Positions 10,277 to 17,911 of a stretch of 64,000 nt of DNA are shown here, piece by piece; position 1 is the first letter of the stretch, and the number at the start of each line of letters is the position of its first letter. Position numbers and translations under genes: made by a program. The stretch is from Longimicrobiales bacterium (lineage in GTDB: Bacteria > Gemmatimonadota > Gemmatimonadetes > Longimicrobiales > Gaopeijiaceae), in contig OY730414.1 of the NCBI GenBank assembly GCA_963422615.1, forward strand, positions 620,001-684,000, in the 5' to 3' direction. The notes under the pieces are model-generated. The model was not told where the DNA came from. It did no database searches and saw only the letters and a list, made by a program, of their open reading frames with translations.

Positions 10277-10960
10277 TCAATCCGGTGGACCGGAGGGAGT
10301 CGGACGAGGCGTCAACATCTGCCGGATATCGGATTCGCGAATGTCGATCAGCTGATCGGCCAGCTGCGCGACTTCCCGGGCCACGCTGCTCCGGTGGGGT
10401 GTGGCGACGAGCACGCGCATTCCGAAGTCCTGGGCCGTGCGAATCGCTTCCGCAATGTCGCGGTCCCCGGCGATGAGTACCGCGGTCGAGCAGATCGACC
10501 GGCCGGCCAGGCGCACCATGTCCAGGGCGATCAGGGTGTCGATACCCTTCTGTTGGCGCTCCAGGCGAAATGTCCAATTCCGGTCGAACTCGGCGAGTAG
10601 CCTTTCCGGCTCCACTCCCAGGCCCAGCGCCGTATTCTCGAGTGCTCGCCGGATGGGCTGCTCCAGGCGCGACGGACGCTCGACGATGTGGCCCAGGCGG
10701 AGTTGAATTCCGGGCGTTAACCCGATGGCGTCGAAAAAAGAACGCTGCCTGTGGTACTGGGCGTGGGAGGGTTCGAAAGCGCTGTCGTACCAGTATGCCC
10801 GCAGGAACTTCTCGCCGTACAGTTCTGCCGCGACGGTACGAAACCAAGCCACAATGGCAGCGGCGTCGGGGCGGACATTGATCTGGTGTTCGCGAATCAG
10901 CCGGGCCCCCTCGGCCCGCAGGAAACCAACATCAACGAATCCGGCGTAATTTCCGGACAT
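10277..10960 (-). CDS. NYN (PIN-like) domain putative RNase
   Basis: FVDxGF, RAYWYD, QKGIDTLIALD, GDRD acidic motifs, ADQLI. GGAG RBS. Confidence 0.88.
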   Translation of the reverse strand: MSGNYAGFVDVGFLRAEGARLIREHQINVRPDAAAIVAWFRTVAAELYGEKFLRAYWYDSAFEPSHAQYHRQRSFFDAIGLTPGIQLRLGHIVERPSRLEQPIRRALENTALGLGVEPERLLAEFDRNWTFRLERQQKGIDTLIALDMVRLAGRSICSTAVLIAGDRDIAEAIRTAQDFGMRVLVATPHRSSVAREVAQLADQLIDIRESDIRQMLTPRPTPSGPPD

Positions 10961-11234
10961 TCAACGCTCCAGTTCGGACTTGGGAATGGCTCCAACGGAG
11001 CCGGACGTAAGGTTCCAGATTGGGTACATCACTGGGATGAGACCGATTAAGGTAATCACATTGCGAGCCGGTTTCCGTTTTTCGACCTTGGGTTCGACCG
11101 CCCGGGCTCGGAGTCTGAACGGAAGTTCCTCGAAAGTCGCTTTCTCTTGCGTTATCTTCTGCGGCGAAGAAATTACTGTCCCGTCTCCCACCAGCCCAAC
11201 TCCCGACCATGAGCGCCCCCCCGGGGCGAGGACA

Positions 11235-12260
11235 ATGACCCGGTTGCCGCAAGGACGATCCCCTGCTTCCCTTCTGGCTGCTGCCGCCATCGTGCCGGTG
11301 GTGCTGGCGGCGTGCGAAGGATCCGATCCGGTCCTGGCCCGAGGCGAGGCCATTTTCGACACGTGCGCGCCCTGCCATGGGCCGCAGGGTGCCGGAAAAC
11401 CCTCCCTCGGGGCCCCCGCCATCGCCGGGGCTTCCGAGTGGTACCTCAGGGCGCAGCTTGACGCCTTTCGAACCCAGCGCAGGGGGTACCACTACCAGGA
11501 TGCGGAGGGGCTCAGAATGCGCCCCATGTCTCGCACGCTGAAGTCGGAAAAGGGAGACGTCGATGCGATCGTCGCCTATGTCGCCGGCCTGCCCGCTGCC
11601 GATCCCCCGGCCACCCGGGGCGGAGACGCGGAAGTGGGGGAGGAGGAGTACGCCACCCTTTGCGCCAACTGCCACGGCCGGGACGGAAGGGGCATGGAGG
11701 CACTGAGTGCTCCCTCCCTGCTTCACCTCAGTGATTGGTACATTGCTTCGTCGTTGAAGAAGTACCGGGAACGAATCAGGGGAGGATCCCTAGGAGACGC
11801 TGCGGGAGCCACCATGTATGCGCCTGTCTCGACCATTTCCGACGAGCGAATCGACGATGTGACGGCCTATATCATGACCATGCAAATGCTGCCCCGAAGG
11901 CCGAGTACCGCCGGAGCCCCTGCTTTGGCCGCCGTGGCGCCGCCGGACTTCGATCCGGCCATCCTGCCCGAGGGCGTGACTCCGGATATGGTGGAGGCGG
12001 GGCTTTCCGTCTTCCACGAAACGGGGATTTGCTACACCTGCCACACCCAGGGGGGCCAGGGTGGCCCGCTTGGACCCGACCTGACCGACGACGTCTGGCT
12101 GAACATCGACGGCGAATACGAATCCATCGTGGAGCTCGTCAACACAGGAGTTCCGCAACCCGTCGAGTACCCTGGGGCAATGCTCCCCACGGCCGGGATG
12201 CCCCTTACCGACGACCAGGTGCGGGCCGTTGCCGCCTACGTGTACGTTCTGAGCCGCTGA
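11235..12260 (+). CDS. Triheme c-type cytochrome lipoprotein (c4-like diheme plus a third c domain)
   Basis: ATG at 11235 after GAGGA. Lipobox LAAC. Three CxxCH motifs (CAPCH, CANCH, CYTCH) with candidate Met ligands. Confidence 0.9.
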   Translation: MTRLPQGRSPASLLAAAAIVPVVLAACEGSDPVLARGEAIFDTCAPCHGPQGAGKPSLGAPAIAGASEWYLRAQLDAFRTQRRGYHYQDAEGLRMRPMSRTLKSEKGDVDAIVAYVAGLPAADPPATRGGDAEVGEEEYATLCANCHGRDGRGMEALSAPSLLHLSDWYIASSLKKYRERIRGGSLGDAAGATMYAPVSTISDERIDDVTAYIMTMQMLPRRPSTAGAPALAAVAPPDFDPAILPEGVTPDMVEAGLSVFHETGICYTCHTQGGQGGPLGPDLTDDVWLNIDGEYESIVELVNTGVPQPVEYPGAMLPTAGMPLTDDQVRAVAAYVYVLSR

Positions 12261-12263
12261 TCC

Positions 12264-12443
12264 ATGGAAACGAAAACCTCTGATCACACCCCGACCCACC
12301 GGGAGCTGGCCGCCAAGATTCCAAGTCCGCCTCCCGATGCGGAAAACGAGGCGATCCTGTTCGCGAAGAAGACCTTCGGCTGGACCCTGATCCTTGCGGT
12401 CCTCTTCGTGGGAGCCGCCGTGGTGTACACCTTTTACCTATAG
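12264..12443 (+). CDS. 59-aa small membrane protein (not in the ORF track)
   Basis: Manual translation METKTSDHTPTHRELAAKIPSPPPDAENEAILFAKKTFGWTLILAVLFVGAAVVYTFYL*. Fills the space between cytochrome c (stop 12260) and subunit II (start 12446). One C-terminal TM helix. Confidence 0.75.
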   Translation: METKTSDHTPTHRELAAKIPSPPPDAENEAILFAKKTFGWTLILAVLFVGAAVVYTFYL

Positions 12444-12445
12444 TT

Positions 12446-13135
12446 ATGGAAACCACGCTCTTCGACAGCCTGGTTCGGGTCGCGTCTTCCTACGCGGCGG
12501 CAATCGACGGCCTAATCGTTCTTGTTCTCGTTCTGGTCGGCGTTTGGTTCCTCGCCGCCGAGGCCCTCTTCCTTTACTTCATTGTCAAGTTTCGAGCGAC
12601 GCCGGGCCGAAGGGCCGACTACATTGACGGGAAGAACAAGCGGCACAAGCGCTGGATCACCATTCCCCACCTTGCGGTGCTCCTGTGCGACGTCTGGATC
12701 ATCGTGATCTCCTTCCAGGTCTGGCACGCGGTCAAGCTTGACCTGCCCGAGAACCCCGACGCAGAGATTCGCATCATCGGCCAACAGTGGGCGTGGACCT
12801 TTCAGCACCCCGGGGCCGACGGCGTCCTGGACACGCCCGACGACATCTTTACGGTCGACGAACTCCACGTGGAGAACGAGAAGATCTATCACTTCAAGCT
12901 CGAAGCCACGGACGTTCTTCACAGCTTTTCGGTTCCGGTCTGGCGCATCAAGCAGGACGCCATTCCCGGCCGGAGCATCACCGGTTGGTTCCAGCCGACG
13001 GAGACCGGCGAATTCGACGTGCAGTGCGCCGAGATTTGCGGCTTCGGCCACGGAGTCATGGTGGCCACGGTTCGGGTTGAAGAAGCGCAAGAACATGCGG
13101 CCTGGGTAGCGGCCAACACGCCTCGAACCCAATAG
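12446..13135 (+). CDS. coxB: Cytochrome c oxidase subunit II (CuA)
   Basis: Two TM helices, GQQWAW, DVLHSF, CAEICGFGHGVM CuA motif. Confidence 0.95.
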   Translation: METTLFDSLVRVASSYAAAIDGLIVLVLVLVGVWFLAAEALFLYFIVKFRATPGRRADYIDGKNKRHKRWITIPHLAVLLCDVWIIVISFQVWHAVKLDLPENPDAEIRIIGQQWAWTFQHPGADGVLDTPDDIFTVDELHVENEKIYHFKLEATDVLHSFSVPVWRIKQDAIPGRSITGWFQPTETGEFDVQCAEICGFGHGVMVATVRVEEAQEHAAWVAANTPRTQ

Positions 13136-13162
13136 CCAGCAGATACGGAGGTTCCAAGAGAG

Positions 13163-14881
13163 ATGGCTGAGCCAGCGGTCGATCTGACACCCGGCCACCC
13201 CGCCGCCGATCATGCCGATCATGGGCCTCAGGGCTGGTTGAAGTACGTGTGGTCAACGGACCACAAGATCATTGCCATGCAGTACATGTTCACGGGCATG
13301 TTCATGGCGCTGATCGGTGGCTTCATGGCCTATGTCTTCCGCGTGCAGCTGGCGTTTCCGGGCGTGGATGTCCCCTTCTTCGGCGTGGTTTCCCCCGGAG
13401 AGTACAACGCGCTGGTGACCAACCACGGCACGATCATGATCTTCTGGGTGGCCATGCCCGTGCTCCTGGCGGCCTTCGGGAACTACCTGATCCCTCTCAT
13501 GGTCGGGGCAGACGACATGGTCTTCCCCCGGATCAACCGCCTGTCTTTTCAGATCTTCTTCATCAGCACGATCGTCATTCTGGCTTCTCTGGTCGTGGAA
13601 GGAGGGGGCTTCGCGGGGGCCTGGACCGCCTACCCGCCGCTGTCGGCGGATGCAGCGTACAACCTCACGCCGCTCGGGAGTACGTTGTGGCTCATCGGGG
13701 TCGGGCTGGAGTTCGTGGCCTTTCTGCTGGGAGGGATCAACTTCATCACCACCCTCATGAACTCCCGGGCCCCCGGGATGCGGGCCTTTGATGTCCCCGT
13801 GGTTGTGTGGATGATCGTCATCGCGAGCATCCTTTTCATGCTTTCCGTCGGCCCGCTCCTTGCCGGGGCGATCATGCTCCTCTTTGATCAGACCCTCGGC
13901 ACCGGCTTCTTCGATCCCGTGGCTGGGGGCGACCCCGTCCTGTGGCAGCACCTTTTCTGGTTCTTCGGACACCCGGAGGTGTATGTCGTTCTCCTGCCGG
14001 CCATGGGGATCGTGGCAGAGATTCTGACTACCTTCGCCCGGAAGAAACTCTTCGCGTATCGCACGGTCATCTTCACCGTGGTGGCCACGGGCGTGCTCAG
14101 CTTCTTCGTGTGGGCCCACCACCAGTTCATCGCGGGGATCGACCCGCGAATGGCGAACCTCTTCACCATTACCACGCTGCTGATCTCGGTCCCCATCGCG
14201 GAGCTGTGCTTCATCTACATTGCCACCCTGTACGGCGGATCCATTACCCTTTCCACGCCCATGCTGTGGGCATTGGCTTTCGTCGCCGAATTCCTCATCG
14301 GGGGGGTAACAGGGATCTTTCTGGGGGCTGCGGGGGCAGACATCTACTTTCACGACACGTACTTCGTCCTGGCTCACTTCCACTACACGTTCTTCCCCAT
14401 TGCCATCATCGGGACCTTTGCGGCCTTTACCTATTGGTTTCCCAAAATATTCGGCAAAATGATGGATGAGCGTCTGGGCAAGATCCACTTCTGGGGAACC
14501 GTCATTCCCTTCAACTTCATCTTCATTCCTCTTTTCGTGCTGGGGATGGGCGGCCAGCACCGGCGAATCTACGACTATACCCATTTCTCCGAGCTCGCCG
14601 GCGGCGGATTCCAGAACCTTCGGATCGTTGCGACCATTTCCCTGCTCGTCATGCTCGCCTTCCAGCTTGTCTTCTTCTACAACTGCTACAAGTCGTGGCG
14701 TTCCGGAAAGAAGGCGTCGAGGAACCCTTGGAGGGCCAACTCCCTGGAATGGACCACCGAGTCACCGCCTCCCCATGGAAACTGGCACCCGGACGAGCTG
14801 CCGGTTGTGTACCGGGGGCCCTACGAATACAGCGTGCCCGATCGTGAAGACGACTATTGGCCCCAGAACGAGCCCGCCTGA
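13163..14881 (+). CDS. coxA: Heme-copper oxidase subunit I, A1 type with atypical proton-channel residues
   Basis: TDHK, NHG (low-spin heme His), WFFGHPEVY, WAHH, HDT..V.AHFH, RR pair. Confidence 0.97.
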   Translation: MAEPAVDLTPGHPAADHADHGPQGWLKYVWSTDHKIIAMQYMFTGMFMALIGGFMAYVFRVQLAFPGVDVPFFGVVSPGEYNALVTNHGTIMIFWVAMPVLLAAFGNYLIPLMVGADDMVFPRINRLSFQIFFISTIVILASLVVEGGGFAGAWTAYPPLSADAAYNLTPLGSTLWLIGVGLEFVAFLLGGINFITTLMNSRAPGMRAFDVPVVVWMIVIASILFMLSVGPLLAGAIMLLFDQTLGTGFFDPVAGGDPVLWQHLFWFFGHPEVYVVLLPAMGIVAEILTTFARKKLFAYRTVIFTVVATGVLSFFVWAHHQFIAGIDPRMANLFTITTLLISVPIAELCFIYIATLYGGSITLSTPMLWALAFVAEFLIGGVTGIFLGAAGADIYFHDTYFVLAHFHYTFFPIAIIGTFAAFTYWFPKIFGKMMDERLGKIHFWGTVIPFNFIFIPLFVLGMGGQHRRIYDYTHFSELAGGGFQNLRIVATISLLVMLAFQLVFFYNCYKSWRSGKKASRNPWRANSLEWTTESPPPHGNWHPDELPVVYRGPYEYSVPDREDDYWPQNEPA

Positions 14882-14899: not shown

Positions 14900-15469
14900 A
14901 TGAAGCCGATCGCAACCACCCGCGCCGCTACGGGAATCGCCACCGGCAAACTGGCCGTGTGGTGGGTACTGGCGTCGGAGGTCGTAATTTTCGGCGGTTT
15001 GCTTGCTGTGTACATCATGCACCGGTTGGGTCACCCGGAGTGGGGAGATGCGGCCATTCACACCAATGTCCGCCTCGGGGCGCTCAACACGTTCGTGTTG
15101 CTGTCCTCGAGCCTCACGGCGGTGCTGGCCCACCAGGCGGCGGAACGAGGGGACGGGAAGACCGCGGCTCGGTTTCTCTACATCACCATTGGAGGGGCCG
15201 TCACCTTTATCGGAGTCAAGTCCTACGAATGGTGGTACGAGATATCCCACGGATACACGATCATGACCAACACCTTTTGGTCATTCTACTATTCGGCTGC
15301 GGGACTTCACGCTCTCCACGTGATTGCGGGGGCCGTGATCATGGCCTTCGTGGCCCGTGATGCGAAGCGGAACATCGAGCTCCACCGGGTGGAGCTGATC
15401 GGCATCTACTGGCACTTCGTAGACATCGTCTGGATCTTCCTCTTCCCGTTGCTCTATATCGCGAAATAG
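14900..15469 (+). CDS. coxC: Cytochrome c oxidase subunit III (short, copy 1)
   Basis: LASEVVIF, NTFVLLSSS, GLHALHV, YWHFVD.VW.FLFP. Confidence 0.92.
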   Translation: MKPIATTRAATGIATGKLAVWWVLASEVVIFGGLLAVYIMHRLGHPEWGDAAIHTNVRLGALNTFVLLSSSLTAVLAHQAAERGDGKTAARFLYITIGGAVTFIGVKSYEWWYEISHGYTIMTNTFWSFYYSAAGLHALHVIAGAVIMAFVARDAKRNIELHRVELIGIYWHFVDIVWIFLFPLLYIAK

Positions 15470-15476
15470 GCGGACC

Positions 15477-16058
15477 ATGGCCGTATTGTCCAAGATGCTG
15501 TCCAATCACTACGTCAAGGTCTACCTTGCCCTGATTGGGCTCTTCGTCGTCAGCGTCGCGGGTCCGACGCTTGAGATCACGTGGGTGACCCTGACCACGG
15601 CCTTCGGGGTGGCCGTGATCAAGGCGTGGCTGGTCATCAAGCACTTCATGCACCTTGCCATTGAGCGTCCCATTGCCAAGTGGTTCCTGGCTGCTTCGGT
15701 GTTGTTGATGGTGCTGCTGTGGGGAGGCGTTGCCCCGGATGTGCAAAAGCACGAGGGCGCCAACTGGGAGAACGTCGCGGCGAAGGCCGCAGTGGAACGG
15801 GGGATATCGGAGCCGGAGGCCCACGACGACGAAGCGCACGTTGAACAGGCGGTCACGGCCGGATTGGTGCCCACCGCAAAGTCGAATTCGAATCTTCTCC
15901 CCGGCGGGTACAACTTCACTCACGTCGCGTTTTGGTCCGTGGTGGGTTTGGTCGCCGTGGGAACCAACGCCGTGGCCATCATGCTCCTGCTGGGTGCAGG
16001 GCTCCTGGTATTTGAGACCGTGAAGAAGTACCGGGAGAAACGGGAGGTCTCACCCTAG
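15477..16058 (+). CDS. Cytochrome c oxidase subunit IV-family protein with long C-terminal extension
   Basis: Y..VY.AL, AVIKA.LV..HFMHL..E motif. Extra polar segment and a further hydrophobic helix. Confidence 0.8.
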   Translation: MAVLSKMLSNHYVKVYLALIGLFVVSVAGPTLEITWVTLTTAFGVAVIKAWLVIKHFMHLAIERPIAKWFLAASVLLMVLLWGGVAPDVQKHEGANWENVAAKAAVERGISEPEAHDDEAHVEQAVTAGLVPTAKSNSNLLPGGYNFTHVAFWSVVGLVAVGTNAVAIMLLLGAGLLVFETVKKYREKREVSP

Positions 16059-16061
16059 GAG

Positions 16062-16664
16062 GTGACCGTGTCGGCAGACGCTACCGTCATTCCATTTCGT
16101 CCCCGTCCCCGCAGGGTGCGGAAGCTGGTCTCAAACGGGGTCATGGGGATGGTCCTCTTCATTTTCGTGGAGGTCATGGTGTTTGCCGGGTTTATCTCGG
16201 CCTTCGTGATCGTGAAGTCCCGGGCCCCGGGCTCCGTGTGGCCCCCGCCGGGTCAGCCGCGCCTCCCCTTCCAGGAAACCGCCCTCAACACGGCGGCCCT
16301 GATTGCCAGCGGATTGGTGTTGCTGTGGGCCCACTGGGCCTACCAGCGGGGCAGAAAAAATATCGGGTTATCGCTCCTGCTGGCCACGGGACTGGGCGTC
16401 GGCTTCGTCGCCCTTCAAGGGGTGGAGTGGGCCGCGTTGTTGCGGGACGGTCTGACCATGACCTCTTCCACCTACGGGAGCCTGTTCTACACGATTATCG
16501 GGACTCACGCCGTCCATGCCATTGTGGCCATCTTCGCGCTGGCGTGGGCCGGGGTTCGATTGCGATTGGGCAAGCTGACCCCCGAAGTCCTCTCCGTTGT
16601 GTCTCTGTTTTGGTACTTCGTGGTCCTGGTCTGGCCTTTTCTGTACCTGCAGGTGTACCTGTAG
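16062..16664 (+). CDS. Cytochrome c oxidase subunit III (short, copy 2)
   Basis: FIFVEVMVF, WPPPG, LNT..LI.S, GTHAVHA, FWYFV.LVWP. RBS AGGAGG. Confidence 0.88.
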   Translation: MTVSADATVIPFRPRPRRVRKLVSNGVMGMVLFIFVEVMVFAGFISAFVIVKSRAPGSVWPPPGQPRLPFQETALNTAALIASGLVLLWAHWAYQRGRKNIGLSLLLATGLGVGFVALQGVEWAALLRDGLTMTSSTYGSLFYTIIGTHAVHAIVAIFALAWAGVRLRLGKLTPEVLSVVSLFWYFVVLVWPFLYLQVYL

Positions 16665-16666
16665 CC

Positions 16667-16933
16667 ATGGACGGTTTTCGGATGCCCAGAGTAGGGATGA
16701 CGCTGGCGGTGCTCGTTTTCCTGGCCCTTACCCCGGAGCATCTCCACGCGTGCCCCGTCTGCTTTGATCGGGACGACGAAGCCCGCCTCGCTTTTTTGGC
16801 GACGACGGCGCTGCTTACGCTGTTGCCGTTGGGCATGGCCCTGGGGACGGGCGTGTGGTTGCGGAAGCGAGCCCGGAAAAGGGAAGAATACGGTGCTGGG
16901 GAGGACGCGCTAGCCTCCCCGGATGAAGCCTAG
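16667..16933 (+). CDS. 88-aa exported/membrane peptide with HACPVC motif
   Basis: ATG just after the previous stop. Signal-like N-terminus, CxxC directly after the predicted cleavage site, one TM helix, basic stop-transfer. Confidence 0.7.
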   Translation: MDGFRMPRVGMTLAVLVFLALTPEHLHACPVCFDRDDEARLAFLATTALLTLLPLGMALGTGVWLRKRARKREEYGAGEDALASPDEA

Positions 16934-17508
16934 CCCGATTCGGTGCCTGGGTCGGTGGTCAACTCCAGAGCTTCTTCCAGTCCAGCCAAGAAGTCTCGGT
17001 CTCCCTCCGGGACCGGTCCGATCCAGCTGAATGCGACCGTGCCCGCCCCGTTGATGAGGACTGAAGTAGGGAGCCCTCTGGCGAGAAAGGCATCCCGGGA
17101 AGTTGCGGCCGGATCAAGGACGATGTCGTAGCCGACCCCCATCTCTTCGACGAAGTCTACGACTGCCTCCCGGTCGGCCCGCCTGTCAATGGAAATTCCC
17201 AGGATCCGAAGCCCGCGCGGCTTGTACTGTTCGTACAGGGATTGAAGGTAGGGGGTTTCGGTCTTGCAGGGATGGCACCATGTGGCCCAGAGGTTCACGA
17301 GCAGTGTTTTGCCCCGGTAGTCTGCGAGGGAAACGGAGGATCCGTCCTGCAGGGACACCGCCGTGAATACAGGCGCCCGGTCGCCTCGGCGGAGGGTGGC
17401 CGACTCCGAAGGAATGCATCCGGACAGAGTTGGCGCCAGCCCTGCAAGGAGCGCAACTCGGCCGGCCGTGCCGAGGCGCAACCGGTTCCGGGTCAGCTGG
17501 GCGGCCAC
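16930..17508 (-). CDS. TlpA/ResA-like thiol-disulfide oxidoreductase lipoprotein (start uncertain)
   Basis: NLWATWCHPC, GLPTS cis-Pro motif, lipobox LSGC. The ORF extends to 17751 but the upstream part looks non-coding. Confidence 0.85.
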   Translation of the reverse strand: MAAQLTRNRLRLGTAGRVALLAGLAPTLSGCIPSESATLRRGDRAPVFTAVSLQDGSSVSLADYRGKTLLVNLWATWCHPCKTETPYLQSLYEQYKPRGLRILGISIDRRADREAVVDFVEEMGVGYDIVLDPAATSRDAFLARGLPTSVLINGAGTVAFSWIGPVPEGDRDFLAGLEEALELTTDPGTESG

Positions 17509-17911
17509 GATAGCCGGATCCAGATCACCGGAGACGGATCCCGTGGGGTCCACTGCCACGCATTCGCCGTTGGAAGCCGCGGACGCGGAACCCGAGTGCC
17601 GGCATGCGGGGTGTGGTGGGTCGCTCGCTCTCTGCCGGCTCTTCGTGCTAGGGATGGGCGAGCTCTCACACCCTGGGCTTCCCGGTATTCTGGCGGCCCG
17701 AACGGTCATGGGCGCCACCGCCAGATCGGTGGTCCGCCGGCCGGGCATCATAAGGTCGTTTCATTTGGATTTCCTGTCTTCTGGCACCGAATTAGAAGGT
17801 CGGAAGCCTGGGGAGCGGAGGCAAGCGAACCCCATTTCCGGGCGAAGCCTTCCCCGCAGCAGGAGACGAGCGACAGAGGAGTGGATCGCCCAAGAAGCCC
17901 AGGAATCAGGC

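Follow-up and report, generated by a model that had tools for sequence, protein, structure and literature searches.

Why two proton channels are required in A-family haem-copper oxidases, and whether the lysine of the K-channel acts as a proton carrier or only as a charge compensator, is a long-standing question that has been approached mainly through crippled mutants. In canonical enzymes the K-channel is described as serving the two reductive steps, as a proton path and/or as a 'dielectric channel' (PMC7196763). The survey of Degli Esposti et al. 2021 (PMC8239418) lists many A-family oxidases without this lysine, including an A1 'KC channel' subclade from Elusimicrobia, Ca. Calescamantes and Methylacidiphilaceae to which the HR19 protein GBD04318 belongs and which is marked by polar residues at four KC positions specific to the C family; in other A-family lineages the lysine is absent with no listed replacement and the D-channel is retained (bioRxiv 10.1101/2020.03.01.968255; PMC8239418). 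Here we describe the oxidase encoded by coxB and coxA (positions 12446 to 14881, + strand) in a 64,000-nucleotide stretch of the genome of a Longimicrobiales bacterium (assembly GCA_963422615.1, contig OY730414.1, positions 620,001 to 684,000; hereafter the window), in which a sequence-only reading had noticed a dismantled K-channel and a proposed cluster of five acidic and histidine residues between subunits I and II. The enzyme is a real, conserved A1 oxidase variant that occurs in several phyla and has both proton channels rebuilt.

coxB (12446..13135, +; PF00116 and PDB matches) encodes a subunit II of 229 residues, in which the CuA ligands H159, C194, E196, C198, H202 and M205 are all present and conserved, and coxA (13163..14881, +; PF00115, 7e-132) encodes a 12-helix subunit I of 572 residues, whose top sequence matches in a PDB search are aa3 oxidases (E about 1e-122). 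Its AlphaFold2 model, with a mean predicted local distance difference test score (pLDDT) of 85.6, also has aa3 oxidases as best fold matches, at a TM-score of about 0.85. The enzyme of this clade is 37–40% identical to the canonical A1 aa3 oxidases of R. sphaeroides (1M56/2GSM), P. denitrificans (1AR1), M. smegmatis (6ADQ) and C. glutamicum (7Q21), with which it shares the 12-helix fold, six His ligands, the HPEVY motif, D132/N139/N207/E286, the Arg pair, the His/Asp of the Mg site and CuA; the CuA-bearing subunit II and the subunit III that mark A1 enzymes are both encoded. Compared with these enzymes, the clade has lost K362, T359, S299, S365 and E101 of subunit II, and S197/S200/S201 have become Glu/Ala/Phe; new are E347, E376, S342, R329, R126/Q130 and Pro412 in subunit I, and H75, D82 and K68 in subunit II. 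The R. sphaeroides numbers were assigned through a relative aligned to 1m56_A combined with a multiple alignment, and we take the bovine residue numbers of the sequence-only reading to be equivalent to them. Its residues in both subunits and its codons at 14201 and 14288 proved correct on translation and alignment, and, as it had reported, the six His ligands, HPEVY, the Arg pair (R467/R468) and the D-channel entry are present, subunit I retaining D118/N125/N193. The six His ligands and the cross-link Tyr (Y274) are found in 120/120 homologs (here and below, the best 120 of 3422 from an independent search), and the HPEVY Glu (E272) in 92/92 sequences of the clade alignment and 119/120 homologs.

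Relatives came from a genome search with at least 600 matches, the best 80 of which were examined; among these, 20 loci have the same operon order, 19 of them at 69–88% identity and one frameshifted. A scan for the helix IV motif added at least 120 further metagenome stretches, 80 of them with flanks, and the enzyme is present in 10/60 related genomes at 79–82% identity. By their record titles, clade members belong to Gemmatimonadota, Myxococcota, Bdellovibrionota, Verrucomicrobiota and Eisenbacteria. We aligned 190 subunit I sequences, omitting 40 metagenome stretches that lacked flanks, and retained the 169 in which at least 90% of residues 60–470 are covered, comprising 85 core members, 7 basal members and 77 sequences from outside the clade. 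Support for the core is 0.988 in the full tree and 99.6 in a 43-sequence subset; the broad clade is poorly supported at its deepest node (0.70 and 58, respectively), probably because sequence L158 is partial. The clade groups with Lys-bearing A1 enzymes of Gemmatimonadota, Acidobacteriota and Binatia, to which it is 40–50% identical (approximate likelihood-ratio test, 100). Many members bear the NCBI name 'cbb3-type cytochrome c oxidase subunit I', an erroneous label for an enzyme that has CuA and a D-channel; C-family enzymes are recognised by cytochrome c subunits in the place of CuA and by the lack of a D-channel, and no cbb3 chain occurred among 60 PDB matches of subunit I. Such frequent mislabelling would distort the oxygen niche and energy yield inferred for these organisms. 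In one metagenome-assembled genome (MAG), whose title is Klebsiella pneumoniae, the complete clade operon is found at 71% identity; the bin is probably mislabelled or mixed.

The set that defines the K-channel of A1 oxidases, namely K362, T359 and S299 with E101 of subunit II, is dismantled. Helix VIII reads VPIAELCF where an ungapped alignment gives VPTGIKFF in M. smegmatis, so that at I345-A346-E347-L348 (14195..14206, +) T359 and K362 are gone and a new Glu stands at I361; the further equivalents are I351 for S365, A285 for S299 and E376 for L390. Lys, Thr and Ser of the channel occur in 0/92 clade sequences and the Lys in none of the 120 best homologs, whereas outside the clade the Lys is found in 74/77 sequences and the helix VI Ser in all 77. 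Since the contrast is this sharp (0/92 vs 74/77), and since both synonymous codons are used at each conserved new residue across clade loci, the loss reflects neither chance nor sequencing error. At the Lys site, position 348, the core has Met (55), Leu (26), Ile (3) or Val (1 of 85), and position 351 is mostly Val or Leu in the clade. In subunit II, the register given by W70 and P74 against 1m56_B, ungapped over transmembrane helix 2 (TM2), places H67 at the entry Glu, H75 at an Ile and D82 at a Gly; a Glu at the E101 site is kept in 11/77 core members. Because the K-channel set has gone, we file the clade as A1-derived rather than canonical. At the top of the old channel, a new hydroxyl, S342 (14186..14188, +), is present in 92/92 clade sequences at a position where the outgroup has Ala (42), Gly (33) or Thr (2 of 77), and which corresponds to A356 of R. 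sphaeroides, a K-channel corner (PMC10341450). Three outgroup sequences (L030, L071 and L078) have lost the K-channel Lys separately; L030 also has Gln in place of a His in the helix VI motif.

A change in the D-channel had been overlooked by the sequence-only reading. On helix IV, E183 (13709..13711, +) replaces S197, accompanied by A186 and F187 at S200 and S201, three positions that are D-channel corners (PMC10341450). E183 is the most conserved of all the changes, being found in 120/120 homologs from the search that is independent of the motif, and Glu or Asp stands at 183 in 7/7 basal and 0/77 outgroup sequences; for the 80 metagenome loci, counting E183 would be circular, as the helix IV motif served to select them, and the other sets are free of this. 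The remainder of the channel is intact: the sites of D132, N139, S142, N207 and E286 are invariant in 92/92 clade sequences, and the window's enzyme retains the Asp, three Asn (including N121), S142 and Y33 sites. Judged by these residues, it is the upper D-channel that we take to have been rebuilt in the clade. Near the channel entry, the outgroup's Met/Ala and Arg have given way to R126 (85/85 core) and D210 (82/85), which may form a swapped salt bridge, and Q130 replaces an invariant outgroup Trp (13538-13552 for R126 and Q130; 13790-13792 for D210).

Further new residues line helices VIII and IX and TM2 of subunit II. E347 (codon 14201, gag) is present in 79/85 core, 0/7 basal and 120/120 nearest-homolog sequences; it is secondarily absent from a five-sequence core branch, Opitutales by name, that keeps the other new residues, and a variant without it is carried by Puniceicoccaceae bacterium K14 (MCH6255307.1), a record without a MAG label. 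R329 (14147..14149, +), at the P-side start of helix VIII and on the same face as E347, is found in 85/85 core and 5/7 basal members. On helix IX, E376 (14288..14290, +; gaa) is Glu in 78, Asp in 1 and Thr in 6 of 85 core sequences and Glu in 117/120 best homologs, with no acid in basal members. In TM2, H75 (12668..12670, +) occurs in 75/77 core, 0/4 basal and 0/74 outgroup sequences, D82 (12689..12691, +) in 77/77 core and 4/4 basal sequences, and K68 (12647..12649, +), at the N-side end, is Lys in 68/76 core sequences. The outgroup has mostly gaps in the D82 column, and the Gly assigned there comes from the ungapped 1m56_B comparison. Three of the four basal members have Glu or Asp at subunit II position 86. 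The entry Glu is also missing from many divergent subunit II clusters in which the D82 site still has an Asp, in many cases followed by another acid four positions later, so the basal grade must be larger than the 7 sequences sampled. E39 of subunit II (12560..12562, +) had been counted as part of the new cluster, but it is Glu in only 49/76 core sequences and Glu or Gln in 60/74 of the outgroup, and is therefore inherited and no mark of the clade.

Conservation of these residues is linked across the two genes, as had been proposed. In 160 paired loci, H75 is present in 80, always alongside E347 and/or E376 (68 with both, 5 with E376 only, 7 with E347 only), and none of the 71 Lys-bearing pairs has any of the three. 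A redundancy of E347 and E376 was also considered; the 80 pairs show no double loss, but the events are too few for significance.

In the modelled complex of subunits I and II, the interface score is 0.89 against 0.00 for the best control, the mark applied being one that 116/157 solved pairs and 2/215 mismatched pairs reach; the runs share at least 97% of contacts, and the partner pLDDT is at least 85. The two subunits are a textbook pairing, and the predictor may have passed by having memorised it. We drew the geometry from the list of interface residues together with helical wheels. The list names 329, 342-343 and 346-347 of subunit I, 371, 374, 375, 378, 379, 382 and 383 of helix IX, and 39, 67-68, 74-75 and 82 of subunit II; E39 touches subunit I at 375 and 378. 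H75, D82 and K68 lie on one face of TM2, with K68 at a wheel angle of 20 degrees from H75, and by register H75 would be level with E347, D82 two turns towards the periplasm, below R329, for which it is a candidate partner, and K68 at the cytoplasmic end. E376 is unnamed in the list, which leaves its place uncertain, and points 123 degrees away from the mean interface direction, well off the side of helix IX that meets subunit II; it is probably a site of its own, directed away from that subunit. Of the five residues proposed as one cluster, E347, H75 and D82 are conserved and sit in the modelled interface, and E376 and E39 drop out. The new residues probably make up three sites: the helix VIII/TM2 seam, E376 alone, and E183 in the D-channel. 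Past the haem ligands of helix X (coxA 409-412, 14387-14398), Thr409 and Pro412 are invariant in 85/85 core sequences and would kink the helix; this site is a possible neighbour of E376.

The tree gives an order to these acquisitions: Lys loss came with E183, S342 and D82, then R126, Q130 and E376 were gained at the base of the core, and then H75 and E347. Basal members without the Lys also lack E347 and E376 (7/7) and H75 (4/4), and a Lys-less enzyme therefore exists without the cluster that the sequence-only reading had put in its place.

The source genome is a single contig of 2.57 Mb and 98.1% complete. coxA is its sole PF00115 match, a search for cytochrome bd gave no match, and it encodes a haem A synthase, complex I-type subunits and a Rieske protein followed by a 622-residue cytochrome b fused to a cytochrome c domain with two CxxCH motifs (near 712-714 kb of the genome). 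Very probably the enzyme is the organism's terminal oxidase, a cytochrome c oxidase of the aa3 type with water as the product of O2 reduction. Electrons would leave the bc-type complex for the cytochrome c of the operon and go on through CuA and the low-spin haem to the haem a3-CuB-Tyr centre. Because the enzyme is intact and is the only haem-copper oxidase of a 98% complete genome without a bd match, decay is not what we see, and the claim of a distinct conserved subfamily is borne out. Among 30 other clade genomes, a single PF00115 match is found in 5, 4 of which are without a bd match; 9 of the 30 have a bd match, and 6 have an extra PF00115 match of E 2e-147 or better, as expected for a canonical A-type oxidase. 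The clade thus offers a natural, conserved K362M/L enzyme that is the sole terminal oxidase found in at least one near-complete genome, and with it a natural test of channel need.

We favour, with a probability of roughly 0.45, the reading that in this O2 reductase cytoplasmic protons are taken up mainly or wholly via a retuned D-channel, a proposal inferred from the sequences. The canonical K-channel would be shut by hydrophobic residues, and protons would travel by way of D118, N125 and the new E183 and then reach E272, making this a single-input enzyme and the mirror image of B- and C-family oxidases. With the D-channel as single input, pumping is predicted to be reduced, probably to less than one proton per electron, where A1 oxidases pump about one. 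R329, D82, H75, E347 and K68 would form a polar seam, added later, between helix VIII and TM2 of subunit II, which would hold the two subunits in place and provide the titratable charge given elsewhere by K362, without being the obligatory proton wire; E376 would be a site of its own. We favour this reading because E183 is tied most tightly to Lys loss and seam residues are missing in basal members. It also agrees with the later loss of E347 in five core members, with the other A-family lineages that lack the Lys and retain the D-channel, and with the dielectric role discussed for the K-channel. Several observations weigh against it. In R. sphaeroides, K362M fully inhibits oxidase activity and the D-channel alone is insufficient (PMC7601700), and the need for K362 is termed consensus (PMC10341450); as K362M blocks the canonical oxidase, some compensation must have taken place in the clade. 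Basal members, too, invariably have S342 and D82, which could be signs of a substitute route, and H75 and E347 are buried, ionisable and conserved beyond the obvious need of a structural contact. In addition, 0/80 pairs have lost both E347 and E376 while keeping H75, although this is weak, about 0.4 being expected by chance. Finally, most clade genomes have other haem-copper enzymes, the single PF00115 match being confined to 5/30.

The main rival, less likely than uptake through the D-channel, is a replacement for the K-channel at the I/II seam: protons would enter near K68, pass E347/H75 and be handed on to Y274 by S342 and the haem a3 tail hydroxyl, giving a two-input full pump. The modelled interface includes E347, S342, A346, H75, D82 and K68, the three TM2 residues share one face, the invariant S342 falls on a corner of the K-channel, and H75 never occurs without E347 or E376. 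Such a wire would nevertheless be missing its acids in 7/7 and its His in 4/4 basal members, and E347 in 6/85 of the core; E376 lies off the interface, and the old lumen is filled with Ile, Leu and Met, with no evident polar residue on helix VIII from 347 to the N side. Somewhat more doubtful is a broader version, in which a Lys-free wire was rebuilt across two genes (K68/H75, E347/S342) outside the old channel and works beside a Glu-lined D-channel, with full pumping, the enzyme having replaced the canonical oxidase in some lineages. That the His/Asp/Glu set binds Na+ or a metal, so that the enzyme pumps Na+ or is cation-regulated, as the sequence-only reading had considered, is improbable. 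Three ionisable residues do meet at one interface, record titles point to marine assemblies for many members, and the source genome has a further set of three antiporter-like subunits (Mrp, or another complex I module; genome positions 2024287-2028367) and a membrane pyrophosphatase (1868857-1870851). However, two helical turns separate H75 from D82 and E376 points in another direction, which should keep them from sharing a single coordination shell, and the D-channel is intact. A search of the source genome for NQR and Rnf subunits gave no match, and its single c subunit reads VEGA at the carboxylate, without Na+ ligands, which by comparison with the Na+ c-ring motif is the H+ type; neither mark of a Na+-coupled chain is thus present, and the gene complement as a whole argues for O2 reduction within a proton circuit.

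Marginally less probable again is an uptake of the chemical protons of the reductive steps from the periplasm via D82/R329, with the acid at 86 in basal members, whereby charge separation would be traded for turnover. D82 is the oldest subunit II change (77/77 core, 4/4 basal) and lies in the P-side half, three of four basal members have the acid at 86, and R329 shares the face of E347; but D82 may merely form a salt bridge with R329, it lies outside helix VIII, and a P-side path beside an intact D-channel would risk a leak. We consider it very unlikely that the enzyme is a natural K362M counterpart working mainly as a cytochrome c peroxidase with H2O2 as acceptor. K362M does retain peroxidase activity (PMC7601700), and Met occupies the Lys site in 55/85 core members. 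The enzyme is, however, the only candidate terminal oxidase in the source genome and, with no bd match, in 4/30 other clade genomes. Moreover, V273 and W154, which we take to be O2-path residues, are invariant in the clade alignment. Residue A153 (13619-13621), which precedes Trp154, is Ala in 84/85 core members and Gly in 77/77 outgroup and 7/7 basal sequences. The least probable reading is a nitric oxide reductase (NOR) or a decayed gene. Loss of proton channels is typical of cNOR and qNOR, but the cross-link Tyr is kept in 120/120 homologs and eNOR, bNOR, sNOR and nNOR have Q, N, N or E instead (PMC11214002). With Y274 and all His ligands in place, the enzyme matches none of cNOR, qNOR, eNOR, bNOR, sNOR, nNOR and gNOR; no NirK was found above the cut-off in the source genome, and the frames of coxB and coxA are intact in an operon conserved over several phyla. 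As the compensating changes are ordered on the tree, single mutants can separate these models.

Among described enzymes, a close counterpart is the 'Gemmatimonadetes' A1 subclade, for which Table S1 of PMC8239418 gives the K-channel as 'yes' or 'generally yes'; the present clade never has the Lys and adds a di-haem cytochrome c upstream. The question raised by the sequence-only reading, whether these enzymes were already catalogued, has a divided answer, since Lys-less A-family enzymes are in that survey and no entry for the core clade was seen. The HR19 protein has Phe, Thr and Phe at the S291, K354 and T351 sites, the pattern of the basal sequence L021 (Ca. Calescibacterium), and this HR19/Calescamantes protein is a probable basal member. 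In that table the core pattern is shown by no protein from Gemmatimonadota, Myxococcota, Opitutales or Eisenbacteria, and the sites of E183, E347, E376, H75 and D82 are left unscored. At T351, the Elusimicrobia and Methylacidiphilum entries of the KC subclade have retained Ser, a residue found there in no clade member (PMC8239418), a comparison made by table entries, the sequences themselves lying outside our tree. The aa3 oxidase of the Acidithiobacillus rus operon and related 'modified K-channel' enzymes resemble the clade in that the Lys and the subunit II Glu have become hydrophobic and the D-channel is kept (bioRxiv 10.1101/2020.03.01.968255); enzymes of this type differ in keeping the Thr, in having extra N-terminal helices, in coming largely from acidophiles and in forming a separate subclade (PMC8239418). 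A search of the open literature, which excluded subscription journals, found no description of the clade's residue set. The clade is a widespread lineage that is apparently unstudied, whose Lys loss belongs to a known phenomenon and whose residue set was not found described. The rus-operon oxidase is presumably fed by a di-haem c4, as the clade enzyme would be by its di-haem cytochrome c.

In the window, coxB and coxA are part of an eight-gene operon on the + strand, in the order cytochrome c, 59-residue protein, coxB, coxA, COX3-like, IV-like, COX3-like and 88-residue open reading frame. The cytochrome c (10980..12260, +; PF00034, 6e-34), with three CxxCH motifs and a true start probably near 11235, is the likely dedicated electron donor: a homolog stands upstream of coxB in 54/57 clade loci that have at least 1.9 kb of upstream DNA. 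It carries two CxxCH, hence two haems, in 61/70 clade loci and three in 3/70; for the third haem domain, a paralog with 76% identity is found at 2333603-2333899 of the source genome. The 59-residue protein (12264..12443, +), with one hydrophobic stretch, has a BLAST match in 16/84 core loci and none in a Pfam search, and is a possible accessory subunit. Downstream of coxA follow a short subunit III homolog (14900..15469, +; PF00510), a subunit IV-like protein with a C-terminal extension (15477..16058, +; PF03626 at 1.9e-5, under the curated cut-off), a second short subunit III homolog (16062..16664, +; PF00510) and, last of the operon, the 88-residue frame (16667..16933, +), which has no family match. 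This COX3 doublet fits the A1 operon subtype a-III (PMC6431628). The operon is flanked upstream by a divergent NYN-domain gene (10277-10960, -) and downstream by a convergent TlpA/redoxin-like gene (16930-17751, -).

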